From Pseudomonas phage vB_PaePAO1-KEN19: a stretch of 64,000 bases of DNA. The translations under genes were made by a program, and so were the position numbers. The stretch lies in sequence record PP456878.1; one strand, given 5' to 3'. Shown here piece by piece: positions 1,046-28,137 of the stretch. Every line of letters starts with the position of its first letter. The first letter of the stretch is position 1. The notes under the pieces are model-generated. The model was not told the origin of the DNA. It saw only the letters and a program-made list of their open reading frames with translations, and ran no database searches.

Positions 1046-3538
1046 TTATTTTAATACTAGATTTTTATTAAATACTTCTGGAGTACTAATATTAGCTGGA
1101 TCAAGTACAATAAATTCAGCTTGGTTAAATGCACCGTGTGTTGATTCAAAGTGGCTGATGAAGAACACTTGATTAACAATGCCATTTTCAATTAACCTGT
1201 TAATGAATGGAATAGCATTGGCTCGATGTTGTTCATCAAAAGTCCTGCTAAATTCATCTAAGAAAAGGGGCATGTCATCTAGATGTAAAAATTTCAAGAT
1301 AGCCATTCTAAAAGCAAAATCAACAATCTCTAATTGTGAGTCAGACCCGTATTCAATGTCCGGTGGCTGAACGTCACCACCTGCAATATGCATTGGGAAC
1401 TTATAATCCATGTCATCTTTGTCAACATTAGAAGGTAATACTTCTAACCTATAAGTCCAAATCTCATTGATGTATGCATTTACTAGTTTAACTACTCCTT
1501 GTAAGAAACCTAATAAATAGCGACCAAGAATACCACTTTTTGGTGATAATGCTTTTTCAAGAATAGCTAAATCAGTAGCCATTTGTTGTGCATGGTTAAC
1601 TTCTGATTCTAAAACTTTAATACGTTCTTCATGACGTTCCATTTCACTTAAACGGCTATGTACACTAGATAGTTCTAAGTTAACAGCATCAATCTCCGCT
1701 TGGTATGCCTTATCTACAAAGTTGTCAGCTGTATCCACTATCTTTTTAATAAACTGCTCCCACCGTTCAATAAAAGAATGATACTTATCTTCCCATTCAC
1801 GAATAGCATTACCAGCTTTATTGAAATGAGCTGCTTTTCTTTGTAAGTCAGTTGCTACATGTGTTTTATTATTAATTTCAGTTTCTAGTGCAGTTGTACG
1901 TGCCTTAATGAATCCTAATGCATCTTGATCCATCTCAGCAATAACACGTAGTCGTTGAGCTAATAAAGTAGCTTCCGCATGAGCTTGCTTAGAGACAATG
2001 AGTTGCTGCATTGCATCTCGCCAGTCTAATGCATCATTTATATATTTTGCTGGTGTGCGATACATTACGATATGCTCAGCTACATAGTTCCATAGCGTAT
2101 CAAATTCATTATACTCTTTCGTTAATTGAACGTAGCCATGTACATAACTTACATATTCATTGAAATCAGTCATGTACTGTTCAAGAACCTTGATCTCATT
2201 TGAACAGCTATCCATTGCTTCGTCTAACTTAGCTTTGCGCTCTTCTGCTATTGTGATATCTTGTTCACTAACACCAGGTTTAAATGAATGAGTGCACGAT
2301 GGACAAATAATAGATGCACATTCCTTAAATGAATTTAGGCGTTGATTAATTTGTAAATACATGCCTTCCATGGTTGAGTATTTACTTTTTAATTCTTTTA
2401 GCCTTTCTGCATTTTTAATAGCAGTTTCTTTACTTAAGTAACCATTCTCATTATTAGGAAATGTAGTGAGAAGTTTGATCCAACGATCTGAGAGATCAGT
2501 AAGTTTACCAGATGGATCACCGTTAACAGAAATGTCAACCAAAGGAAATCTACCGGTATACTTCTTATATTTACTAATAGCTTCTTCAGCAATGCGTGTA
2601 TGATGTTCATGTCTGTCCTTAAGTTCTTGTATTTCTTCTGGAGACATACGTTCAGCTGTATTCGGATTAGAGCTTTTTAATTCTTCTAATTCTTCAACTA
2701 AACGTGCAATAACTGCTTGTATAGATTTATATTCTTCAATCTTCTTATTATTTAGTTCTAAGAAAGATTCATACCCATCTACTTTAACTTGAATAGGTAA
2801 CATTGGAAATGACATTAACAATGAACGAGCTTCATCTAAGATAGAATCTAATTCTTTACGTGCAGTGGTTTCATCTCTAAAATGAAGGACACCTTTCTTA
2901 TCACGTGTTTTATAAAGTAAATCAATACGACTAACTAACCGTTGTTTCACTTCTTTCAACTGTGTCATTTCTGAATCATTCAATACCCCATGGTGTTCTG
3001 TGACCAATCGCTTATTAATTGTTTTAACAGTACCTTGCTGGTTAGATAATTCTTTACGTACTTTGTTATAAACATTAAATGCATAATCAAGGTTAACTAC
3101 AGACATTCTAGTTAACCATGCTTTACGTTCATTAGGTTTTAACTTTGTAAAACGCATCTTACCTGTCAACATTTCATGCAGTTCTCGGTTTAACCCGAAA
3201 TGCACCATTACAAGTTCTTCTTGTTCTTTAAAGGTATGACCACTATTTAATTCTTCATCATTACATAAAAAGGAATGATGTCCAGTGCCACGGTTATATT
3301 TAGAAATTAATTTATAGTCTTTACCATTTGCATGACAATGGAAATGTTTCTCGCCACCTTGCTTGAAGTTTGAACTGCTAGATACAACAGGTGTCAGTTC
3401 ACTAATAATAGATGATTTGCCAGAACCATTACTACCAAGTATAACCATCATCTGTTTGCTTGGAGTCCATTCAAAATAATGTGTATTATTGGCCATCAAC
3501 CTAGTATAGCCAATTAGCTTAAGTAGCTTGATCTGCAT
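1046..3538 (-). CDS. SbcC/Rad50/SMC-like P-loop ATPase with a long coiled coil (830 aa)
   Basis: N-terminal Walker A 'GSNGSGKSS'. Very long heptad-rich middle. C-terminal 'LFLDEFSRTFDEQHR' looks like an ABC-type Walker B/D-loop. Confidence 0.6.
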   Translation of the reverse strand: MQIKLLKLIGYTRLMANNTHYFEWTPSKQMMVILGSNGSGKSSIISELTPVVSSSSNFKQGGEKHFHCHANGKDYKLISKYNRGTGHHSFLCNDEELNSGHTFKEQEELVMVHFGLNRELHEMLTGKMRFTKLKPNERKAWLTRMSVVNLDYAFNVYNKVRKELSNQQGTVKTINKRLVTEHHGVLNDSEMTQLKEVKQRLVSRIDLLYKTRDKKGVLHFRDETTARKELDSILDEARSLLMSFPMLPIQVKVDGYESFLELNNKKIEEYKSIQAVIARLVEELEELKSSNPNTAERMSPEEIQELKDRHEHHTRIAEEAISKYKKYTGRFPLVDISVNGDPSGKLTDLSDRWIKLLTTFPNNENGYLSKETAIKNAERLKELKSKYSTMEGMYLQINQRLNSFKECASIICPSCTHSFKPGVSEQDITIAEERKAKLDEAMDSCSNEIKVLEQYMTDFNEYVSYVHGYVQLTKEYNEFDTLWNYVAEHIVMYRTPAKYINDALDWRDAMQQLIVSKQAHAEATLLAQRLRVIAEMDQDALGFIKARTTALETEINNKTHVATDLQRKAAHFNKAGNAIREWEDKYHSFIERWEQFIKKIVDTADNFVDKAYQAEIDAVNLELSSVHSRLSEMERHEERIKVLESEVNHAQQMATDLAILEKALSPKSGILGRYLLGFLQGVVKLVNAYINEIWTYRLEVLPSNVDKDDMDYKFPMHIAGGDVQPPDIEYGSDSQLEIVDFAFRMAILKFLHLDDMPLFLDEFSRTFDEQHRANAIPFINRLIENGIVNQVFFISHFESTHGAFNQAEFIVLDPANISTPEVFNKNLVLK

Positions 3539-3587
3539 GATTAACCCTTAATAATGTCTTACTCTATAGAGTTAATAACCCTAGTAA

Positions 3588-4760
<1,173 letters not shown>

Positions 4761-11728: not shown

Positions 11729-12019
11729 ATGCTCGGTTTGACTATTAAAGCCTTGCTCTTCGTTTGGCCATTCCTTAAGAGGGCTATCTTTGGTGATAGA
11801 ACTATTAAGGAAGTGTTGCTGGAAAACAAACACGTCACGGCGATGTTGATCCTAGTTGTAATATTACTAGGTACCTTATTCATAGTGACTAGTGAGTTGA
11901 AGTCAGTTAAAGCAAGCAACTGGGCCGTTAAAGCCGAAATGGATCGACTCAAGAAAATGACGCCTGAGAAGGCTGAAATGCTTGAGCGCCGCCGTCGTTT
12001 AAATGACTTGCTAAAGTAA
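11729..12019 (+). CDS. Small membrane protein with two predicted TM helices
   Basis: Hydrophobic segments LTIKALLFVWPFL and AMLILVVILLGTLFIVTS, followed by a basic/coiled tail. Confidence 0.5.
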   Translation: MLGLTIKALLFVWPFLKRAIFGDRTIKEVLLENKHVTAMLILVVILLGTLFIVTSELKSVKASNWAVKAEMDRLKKMTPEKAEMLERRRRLNDLLK

Positions 12020-12027
12020 GTACCAAA

Positions 12028-12441
12028 TTGGTGGATCACATGTCAAGAAAGTTCTTTCTAATACTCCTACCACTTATCAGTGGCTGTGTTTATACGCCAC
12101 ATGAGTACCACACGCACAACACGACTGTGGTCCAATATGAGCACTCCTCTTCTACAGATGATCATACATCTGTTGTTACAACTAAAGAAGAGGTAATACA
12201 AAAAGTTCTGCCTACACCTAAAAAATATAGTAAGGATACTAGTAAGAAGTGTATGGTTTTCGAACTACCAAGAAAGAAACCGGTACCGCCAACACCGATT
12301 ATTACAGAGTTTATAGAAACTCCGGAACAAATCGATATCTTGTTGACTGACTATATAAAAGAATTAAAGTCACATATTGTATCTGAGCGCGCTAAAATTG
12401 AGCAAGCATATGAAGAATGGCGTGCAAAGTGTGATGAGTAA
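12028..12441 (+). CDS. Lipoprotein (signal peptide with lipobox LISGC)
   Basis: 'MSRKFFLILLPLISGC' is a canonical lipoprotein signal. Placed 8 nt after the 2-TM protein gene. Confidence 0.55.
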   Translation: MVDHMSRKFFLILLPLISGCVYTPHEYHTHNTTVVQYEHSSSTDDHTSVVTTKEEVIQKVLPTPKKYSKDTSKKCMVFELPRKKPVPPTPIITEFIETPEQIDILLTDYIKELKSHIVSERAKIEQAYEEWRAKCDE

Positions 12442-25419: not shown

Positions 25420-25462
25420 ATTGCTAATGAGTAATATTTTAACAACATAAGAGAGTCCCGAA
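25420..25462 (-). terminator. Minus-strand terminator after the endolysin gene (GAGAGTCC-TTCG-GGACTCTC, then TTATGTTGTT)
   Basis: Hairpin plus a U-rich tail. Confidence 0.6.
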
Positions 25463-25553
25463 GGACTCTCAAAAAGTTACATTGACACAAGATGTGGTTT
25501 ATCATGAGGGGAAGTTTCACATGATACCATAGACTCCATTCTATTGCTACATC

Positions 25554-26375
<822 letters not shown>

Positions 26376-26931: not shown

Positions 26932-27013
26932 GTCAAACCTCTATAGTGGTAAAATGTTTAATCCACATAGCATTATAAAGCCTTCCTCTTGAAGAGGAAG
27001 GCTATTATAGTTT

Positions 27014-27448
27014 TTATTGCATAAGCATCTTTATTAATTCAAAGGTACCTTGCACAATAGTCTTTAACACATTGGCACTTTCTTCTGACATAGGTGCACC
27101 AGATAAAACTACCATAGTAGATACTGATGCCCCAATAAGAGTAACGCCACCAGCTAATACCAATACCGCATTACGGTAAGAATCTTTAGCCTTCACTTCA
27201 GCAATTTCCCGGCTGAGAATTTTATATTGAAGATCTGAATCGGTAATAGCATAAATTAGACTAAGTACTTCCTCACCAGTTATACTTAGATTTATACGTT
27301 GTTCCTTTTCCAATACACTATTCAAATAGGTACGTATCTTCTTTCCATAGTCTTTAGAAGAAGATAAAGGATTACCATCGATCTCAATCAGAACGTCCTC
27401 TAGGGTCATGACTATTCTCCAAATTACGTTGACGTTCGTTCCATTCAC
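27014..27448 (-). CDS. Single-TM membrane protein in the lysis cassette (holin/antiholin candidate, weak)
   Basis: TM 'AVLVLAGGVTLIGASVSTMVVL' near the C-terminus. Sits next to the spanins and endolysin. Confidence 0.4.
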   Translation of the reverse strand: MNGTNVNVIWRIVMTLEDVLIEIDGNPLSSSKDYGKKIRTYLNSVLEKEQRINLSITGEEVLSLIYAITDSDLQYKILSREIAEVKAKDSYRNAVLVLAGGVTLIGASVSTMVVLSGAPMSEESANVLKTIVQGTFELIKMLMQ

Positions 27449-27746
27449 GCAATTTGTCTACTTGGATATTACATAGTCCAAGTGCATCAGTTTGTAAAAG
27501 CCAATGTTCGGTCATAAGTAAGAAACGTGCTTCATTCTCATCAGTAACCCCAACAGCTTTATATCTATCTAATGCATTGATGATCTCATTAGCTGTAGGT
27601 GGGGCTTCCACATCGCAAGGGAGAAGTAAACTACTTGGGATTGCAACTGGTATTTTCACGGGAGGCGGCACAGTAGTGCTCGTACATCCGTTTAGCAATA
27701 GCATTAATAGACTTATTAATGTTATCTTTTTTTGTGTCAGTTTCAT
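27384..27746 (-). CDS. o-spanin (Rz1-like outer-membrane lipoprotein), overlapping the 3' end of the i-spanin gene
   Basis: From the internal ATG at 27746: 'MKLTQKKITLISLLMLLLNGC' is a signal plus lipobox, then a proline-rich stretch TSTTVPPPVKIPVAIP. Different frame from 27631..28137 and extends past its stop. Confidence 0.6.
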   Translation of the reverse strand: MKLTQKKITLISLLMLLLNGCTSTTVPPPVKIPVAIPSSLLLPCDVEAPPTANEIINALDRYKAVGVTDENEARFLLMTEHWLLQTDALGLCNIQVDKLREWNERQRNLENSHDPRGRSD

Positions 27747-28137
27747 GTTTAATCTCAGTAGTGGTGCTTTCCCCATTAGTTGTTTTAGCTTTAACCTCAG
27801 GCCATACAGGTGGAGTATATCCACGACCTGATAAACTAATGTACTCATCAATCACCTCAGTGCGTGATTGCGCCTGCTCTTTTTGTATCTCTTTCTTTTT
27901 AGTAATTAGTTCAGCTTGAATTTTATCGGAGATACGATCTGATTCAATCCTAACCTTTTCTGCCGCTTCATAAGATTTAATTTTTCCAATTAAATCTGTA
28001 GAGCGAACAAGTTCCGTCTCATAACTATTTTTGTAATATATGATACCAATTAAGGCACCTATCAGAATAACTAATAGTAACCATATATGCAATGGCACGC
28101 TACCAATTATTTTTCGTATACCTGCTAATAGGAACAT
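27631..28137 (-). CDS. i-spanin (Rz-like): N-terminal TM then a charged periplasmic coiled coil
   Basis: 'LHIWLLLVILIGALIGIIYY' TM, then EAAEKVRIESDRISDKIQAELITKKKEIQKEQAQ. Confidence 0.6.
   Translation of the reverse strand: MFLLAGIRKIIGSVPLHIWLLLVILIGALIGIIYYKNSYETELVRSTDLIGKIKSYEAAEKVRIESDRISDKIQAELITKKKEIQKEQAQSRTEVIDEYISLSGRGYTPPVWPEVKAKTTNGESTTTEIKHETDTKKDNINKSINAIAKRMYEHYCAASRENTSCNPK

Follow-up and report, generated by a model that had tools for sequence, protein, structure and literature searches.

The spanin genes examined here lie in the window, a 64,000-nt stretch of DNA from Pseudomonas phage vB_PaePAO1-KEN19 (PP456878.1), and almost certainly form part of the multigene lysis cassette of phiKZ, which consists of an overlapped spanin pair, a holin, a lysis regulator and an endolysin. 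The 1.9 kb around the spanin locus are 100% identical to phiKZ (AF399011/NC_004629) and many near-identical isolates. As the window runs in reverse complement to the phiKZ record, a record coordinate equals 172624 minus the window coordinate. The region contains PHIKZ139 to PHIKZ146, all encoded on the minus strand of the window (Table 1). ORFs found on the plus strand beneath the cassette, e.g. 27454..27831 and 27719..27919, were dismissed as antisense by-products since every annotated and conserved gene in this region is located on the minus strand. The spanin pair and the cassette are already known, having been catalogued in 2018 and characterized experimentally in 2025-2026, and the object described here is the same one, differing in nothing.

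Table 1. Window coordinates of the cassette features and of a second membrane protein/lipoprotein gene pair.
Feature	Position in window	Strand	Description
gp141 (PHIKZ141), i-spanin	27631..28137	-	168 aa; assigned from the sequence, function from PMC12894885
gp141.1, o-spanin	27384..27746	-	120 aa; assigned from the sequence, Kongari 2018 and PMC12894885
Dual-coding overlap	27631..27746	-	116 nt; gp141 in frame 0 (C-terminal helix and Cys motif), gp141.1 in frame +1 (signal peptide and lipobox)
gp142, holin	27014..27409	-	131 aa; function from PMC12894885
Intergenic hairpin, gp142/gp143	26979..27003	-	11 bp, GC-rich
gp143, holin-specific lysis regulator (as reported in PMC12894885)	26398..26931	-	Cytoplasmic, no transmembrane segment
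gp144 (KZ144), endolysin	25554..26336	-	Lytic transglycosylase; downstream of gp143
gp156.1 (PHIKZ156.1)	11729..12019	+	96-aa membrane protein
gp156 (PHIKZ156)	12040..12441	+	Only other lipoprotein signal of the window; directly after PHIKZ156.1

The pair was first listed by Kongari et al. 2018 (BMC Bioinformatics 19:326, PMC6139136), who placed phiKZ among the phages with overlapped two-component spanins. Their supplement gives "phiKZ ovl 144486-144993 / 144877-145240, overlap 116", with a 168-aa i-spanin and a 120-aa o-spanin, and the o-spanin entry 144877-145240 corresponds to 27746..27384 in the window, i.e. to the identical start codon. The same study annotated the pair of phage 201phi2-1 and remarked that its o-spanin matches the one of phiKZ (PMC6139136). 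Experiments were reported by Manohar, Wan, Ganser, Sharp and Young (preprint November 2025; Sci Rep 2026, 16:5840; PMC12894885), who carried out complementation in E. coli lambda lysogens and with plasmids rather than with spanin mutants of phiKZ and used a 120-codon gp141.1 gene starting at 27746. There, 141/141.1 complemented a lambda RzamRz1am prophage, both genes being needed and spherical cells being the end state of the uncomplemented lysogen (PMC12894885). gp142 complemented lambda Sam and was triggered early by dinitrophenol (DNP), and it was classified as a class III holin, termed class IIIb by these authors because its large soluble domain is cytoplasmic (PMC12894885). gp143 shifts the timing of the holin via the N-terminal domain of gp142, and the cloned five-gene cassette lyses both E. 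coli and P. aeruginosa (PMC12894885). Earlier reviews had speculated that the endolysins of phiKZ-like jumbo phages are exported without a holin, a question that has now been answered in print and to which the present analysis adds nothing; its practical value lies in annotation hygiene. The view taken in the first-pass annotation, a reading of the bare sequence, that the holin and the spanins of phiKZ-type phages are poorly defined is outdated in the light of Kongari 2018 and Manohar 2026.

gp141 starts with an ATG located behind a GAGG and contains one strongly hydrophobic segment, residues 16-34 (Kyte-Doolittle maximum over 19 residues of 2.6), giving a transmembrane segment at about residues 16-35, with no second hydrophobic segment in the protein. 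R8 and K9 are positioned on the N-terminal side of this segment, the arrangement of an N-in/C-out (type II) membrane protein. Residues 36-100 are 42% charged and include a single Pro or Gly, and after residue 100 the chain continues with a stretch rich in Thr, Ser, Pro and Gly and a C-terminal segment carrying Cys156 and Cys165. The AlphaFold2 model, calculated from the single sequence (mean pLDDT 72), has a helix comprising residues 16-103 (pLDDT 73-95 by 10-residue block), a disordered or low-confidence coil at residues 104-133 and a helix at residues 134-158. The predicted order of transmembrane segment, helix, linker and helix is Rz-like, with two helices in the modeled periplasmic part. 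At the family level gp141 matches PHROG 7584 "Rz-like spanin" with 8.6e-70, and it has no detectable similarity to P2 LysB in Pfam.

The first-pass annotation had described ORF 27631..28137 as a single N-terminal transmembrane segment followed by a charged coiled coil. The transmembrane segment and the charged helix hold, but the coiled coil was dropped and the protein kept as helical, because a crude heptad score fails to separate gp141 from its shuffled versions, 265 of 500 of which reached it. The Pepcoil table of Kongari 2018 gives 0 coiled coils for the phiKZ i-spanin (PMC6139136), and one coiled-coil domain is marked in the i-spanin in Fig. 2A of Manohar et al. (PMC12894885). Thus, gp141 is supported as a "long charged helix" whereas a coiled coil is not demonstrable, and in this respect the phiKZ i-spanin differs from lambda Rz, its coiled coils not being detectable by simple predictors.

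gp141.1 is encoded from ATG 27746 to TGA 27384 in the +1 frame relative to gp141 and reads MKLTQKKITLISLLMLLLNGC followed by TSTTVPPPVKIPVAIPSSLLLPC.... Its gene shares 116 nt with that of gp141 and runs 247 nt beyond the gp141 stop codon, which is the "overlapped" architecture. The N-terminus consists of MKLTQKK, a hydrophobic core and the lipobox LNGC (Cys21, with Thr at +2). Asn at position -2 is atypical and lies outside the strict consensus, so that the lipobox fits by pattern only; the corresponding motif of PhiPA3 is LHGC. The mature protein begins with C-T-S-T and has no Asp at +2. In the Lol system of E. coli, sorting to the outer membrane requires that no Lol-avoidance residue follows the Cys. 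As Asp is missing from +2, gp141.1 has the N-terminus of a lipoprotein sorted to the outer membrane. Nine prolines are present, eight of them within residues 22-52. LipoP has been reported to be positive for gp141.1 as a lipoprotein with the lipobox LNGCT (PMC12894885).

We scanned all six frames of the window for ORFs of at least 50 codons whose N-terminus shows a lipoprotein signal, defined as a basic n-region, a hydrophobic core free of charges and a lipobox. Only two loci were found, gp141.1 (with two alternative ATGs) and the plus-strand gene at 12040, whereas shuffled sequence gave 0.03 hits per window; the lipoprotein signal of the gp141.1 locus is thus essentially unique in the window. 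The 120-aa protein matches Pfam PF23793 "Rz1-like lysis system protein LysC" (3.6e-10, 40.1 bits, curated cut-off 27) over residues 16-59, and since the match begins at residue 16 it includes the lipobox. A second match was obtained to PHROG 456 "Rz-like spanin" (1.6e-11). Residues 40-120, i.e. the non-overlapped C-terminal part encoded by 27384..27627, constitute PHROG 24791. The mature protein has 100 aa, which is long for an o-spanin. The single-sequence AlphaFold2 model of gp141.1 was poor (mean pLDDT 52) and hinted only weakly at helices within residues 52-112.

Three start codons have been or could be assigned to this frame. GenBank and RefSeq annotate PHIKZ141.1 only as 27384..27671, starting from a GTG and giving a 95-aa protein that is missing the signal peptide. 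If this short protein were the real product, the upstream lipobox would be a by-product of gp141 coding, a reading to which the annotated start in both databases and the weak Shine-Dalgarno sequence (GAG) ahead of ATG 27746 lend some weight. We consider it extremely improbable: GTG 27671 has no Shine-Dalgarno sequence, the Pfam LysC match extends into the lipobox, the expected number of such signals by chance is about 0.03 per window, and the +1-frame signal peptide with its lipobox Cys has been kept in nine genera despite an i-spanin identity of 15-30%. Moreover, successful complementation was achieved with the 120-codon version (PMC12894885). A start at the upstream in-frame ATG 27776, which would yield a protein of 130 aa (MGKAPLLRLNMKLTQKK...) of the same function, also gives an acceptable lipoprotein signal. 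This start is unlikely, as no Shine-Dalgarno sequence precedes it and both Kongari 2018 and Manohar 2026 chose 27746, and the choice leaves the mature protein identical. We therefore retain ATG 27746 as the start of the o-spanin.

To follow the locus beyond phiKZ we compared the syntenic regions of eight phages from other genera, PhiPA3, PS119XW, Psa21, RVTF4, Phabio, 201phi2-1, Viktualia and Noxifer. The gene order RuvC-like protein, i-spanin, +1-frame lipoprotein, gp142-like protein, gp143-like protein and endolysin is kept in all eight. Likewise, in every one of them an open +1 frame runs across the 3' portion of the i-spanin gene and codes for a hydrophobic leader that ends with L-x-[GA]-C, the overlap between the two genes measuring 146-206 nt where the start is assignable. 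In the o-spanin alignment covering nine genera including phiKZ, the lipid-anchor Cys21 as well as Cys44 and Cys92 are invariant. In the i-spanin alignment Tyr155-Cys156 and Cys165 are invariant, though overall identity to phiKZ is 15-30%. Across genera, the C-terminal part of the o-spanin (PHROG 24791) has diverged less than the i-spanin: in tblastn searches its identity was 54-59% in PhiPA3, PS119XW, Psa21 and RVTF4 and 34-44% in Phabio, 201phi2-1, Viktualia and Noxifer, compared with 28-36% for the i-spanin where this was detected at all.

These results bear out the first-pass annotation in reading the frame from ATG 27746 as a signal peptide and lipobox (LNGC) followed by a proline-rich segment (eight of nine Pro in residues 22-52), in placing it over the 3' end of the i-spanin gene with an extension beyond it in the manner of P2 LysB/LysC (116 nt shared, 247 nt beyond, PF23793), and in interpreting the pair as i-spanin and o-spanin, for which PHROG 7584, PF23793, the conservation in nine genera, Kongari 2018 and Manohar 2026 all speak. 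The comparison with curated spanin sets that it had proposed gave matches to PHROG 7584 and 456, to PF23793 and to the Kongari entry.

The overlaps continue downstream of the spanins. At its 3' end the o-spanin gene extends over the start codon of the holin gene, with 26 nt shared in phiKZ (27384..27409), PS119XW, RVTF4, Phabio, 201phi2-1 and Viktualia and 38 nt in Noxifer, while small gaps are present instead in PhiPA3 and Psa21. Hence, i-spanin, o-spanin and holin genes form a chain of overlapping genes in seven of the nine genera, along which translation is possibly coupled.

gp142 contains a large N-terminal cytoplasmic domain, a single transmembrane segment at about residues 81-103 and a short periplasmic tail. 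It is thus a small membrane protein whose gene immediately follows that of the o-spanin and precedes gp144 by two genes, as would be looked for in a holin. Its start is most likely ATG 27409, which falls within the gp141.1 gene, 26 nt from its 3' end, has a GGAG 7 nt upstream and yields 131 aa. GTG 27448 was rejected as it has no Shine-Dalgarno sequence and as the published residue numbers (Lys24, Thr27, Glu71) fit only ATG 27409. The single-transmembrane protein at 27014..27448 proposed in the first-pass annotation accordingly kept its one transmembrane segment but not its GTG start. The endolysin, which had been placed 1 kb away, is indeed downstream, but it begins 678 bp from gp142 with gp143 in between. 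The suggestion of a candidate lysis cassette was sound, except that gp142 was not named as its holin and the regulator gp143 was overlooked. No Pfam match was found for gp142, and its sole PHROG match, 14484, is labelled "virion structural protein".

The hairpin between gp142 and gp143 folds as RNA with -20.4 kcal/mol (z = -4.3), and none of 200 shuffled sequences was as stable. On the transcribed strand it is followed by UUUAUAAU. The hairpin probably ends the orf139-142 transcript, which agrees with the published transcription start site upstream of orf143 (PMC12676376). A comparable terminator-like hairpin is located after the endolysin region (25470..25451, minus strand). In the phiKZ Tn-seq preprint, transcription start sites are cited upstream of orf139, orf143 and orf144, and orf142 and orf144 are described as free of insertions, with five insertions in orf143, i.e. 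tolerated there (PMC12676376); the text consulted makes no mention of orf141, orf141.1 or orf156.

Public records describe the locus unevenly. The RefSeq product name of PHIKZ141 is "Rz-like spanin", PHIKZ142 and PHIKZ143 are labelled "virion structural protein" and PHIKZ144 is an endolysin. The o-spanin CDS is absent from four of the eight related records (201phi2-1 among them), and in the other four it is entered as a hypothetical protein of reduced length whose start lies downstream of the lipobox. The homologues of the holin and of the regulator are widely labelled "virion structural protein". For 201phi2-1, gp226, gp227 and gp228, the homologues of gp141, gp142 and gp143 (2068..3767 of the fetched region), carry the remark "identified as virion protein by mass spectrometry", which we take to reflect contamination of virion preparations by membrane fragments, the ordinary explanation.

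The annotations might be taken to mean that gp141, gp142 and gp143 serve primarily as structural proteins of the virion and that the lysis seen with them in heterologous tests is incidental. PHROG 14484 and PHROG 2935 are both labelled in this way, gp142 and gp143 bear the same names in RefSeq, and all three 201phi2-1 homologues are annotated as detected by mass spectrometry. Yet membrane proteins are common contaminants of virion preparations, carried along as vesicle debris, and the topology signals, the family matches and the conserved place beside the endolysin all fit lysis. As the reported complementation of lambda holin and spanin defects and triggering by DNP (PMC12894885) are hallmarks of lysis proteins, we regard a primarily structural role as highly improbable. 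The annotated detection of 201phi2-1 gp226-gp228 in purified virions, together with the "virion structural protein" labels of phiKZ gp142 and gp143, also led us to weigh whether i-spanin, holin and regulator are genuine minor virion components as well, with a second role at entry or in superinfection sensing; this, too, is very unlikely. Lysis remains the function that we assign to these proteins.

In the standard multigene lysis pathway, which best explains the cassette, gp142 would accumulate in the inner membrane and form holes at a set time, with cytoplasmic gp143 tuning the timing through the long N-terminal domain of gp142. The holes would give gp144 access to the peptidoglycan, which it would then degrade. 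The helical periplasmic domain of gp141 would bind mature, lipid-anchored gp141.1, and the resulting complex would bridge the periplasm, passing through the meshes of the peptidoglycan. Degradation of the peptidoglycan would free these complexes, allowing them to destroy the outer membrane, which according to the lambda Rz/Rz1 model would be fused with the inner membrane. The topology signals, the overlap of the genes, the family matches and the conservation come from the present analysis, and the functions, namely complementation of lambda spanin and holin mutants and lysis by the cloned cassette, from the literature (PMC12894885). The fusion mechanism and disulfide-linked dimers, which may form through the invariant cysteines, we infer by analogy with Rz/Rz1.

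The phiKZ pair resembles lambda Rz/Rz1 in combining a type II inner-membrane protein (helix, linker, helix) with a proline-rich outer-membrane lipoprotein, periplasmic cysteines being present in each subunit of both systems, and in lambda the phiKZ genes can functionally take the place of Rz/Rz1 (PMC12894885). However, it has no sequence similarity to Rz, its o-spanin is 2.5 times longer, and its genes are overlapped whereas lambda Rz1 is fully embedded in Rz. In gene arrangement the phiKZ pair is like P2 LysB/LysC, which is overlapped as well, its o-spanin being read in the +1 frame from a start within the 3' portion of the i-spanin gene and extending beyond that gene. Over residues 16-59 the score of gp141.1 exceeds the curated cut-off for LysC (PF23793), but in comparison with LysC it is long (100 aa when mature) and possesses the extra conserved C-terminal region of PHROG 24791, which is predicted to be helical with low confidence. 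Among holins, T4 gpt is like gp142 in having a single N-in/C-out transmembrane segment and in being regulated by partner proteins. The large soluble domain is periplasmic in T4 gpt and cytoplasmic in gp142, and the two proteins have no sequence similarity, so gp142 shares topology with T4 gpt, not ancestry.

The second locus found in the lipoprotein scan encodes another membrane protein/lipoprotein pair, gp156.1/gp156, on the opposite strand. At its N-terminus gp156.1 carries a conserved amphipathic segment; it has one strong transmembrane segment, and its charged tail (...ERRRRLNDLLK) is very basic. Judged by these features, it looks holin-like or i-spanin-like. gp156 starts with MSRKFFLILLPLISGC. 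Both proteins belong to PHROGs labelled "unknown function", searches of Pfam gave no significant match for either (a single hit of gp156.1 was far below the cut-off), and we found no literature on them. Possible roles are those of a second envelope-spanning pair, of superinfection exclusion or of a lysis-inhibition sensor. The two genes are adjacent in all four phages compared, phiKZ, PhiPA3, PS119XW and 201phi2-1, and in the alignment of gp156 from these phages the lipobox Cys16 as well as Cys71 and Cys131 are invariant.
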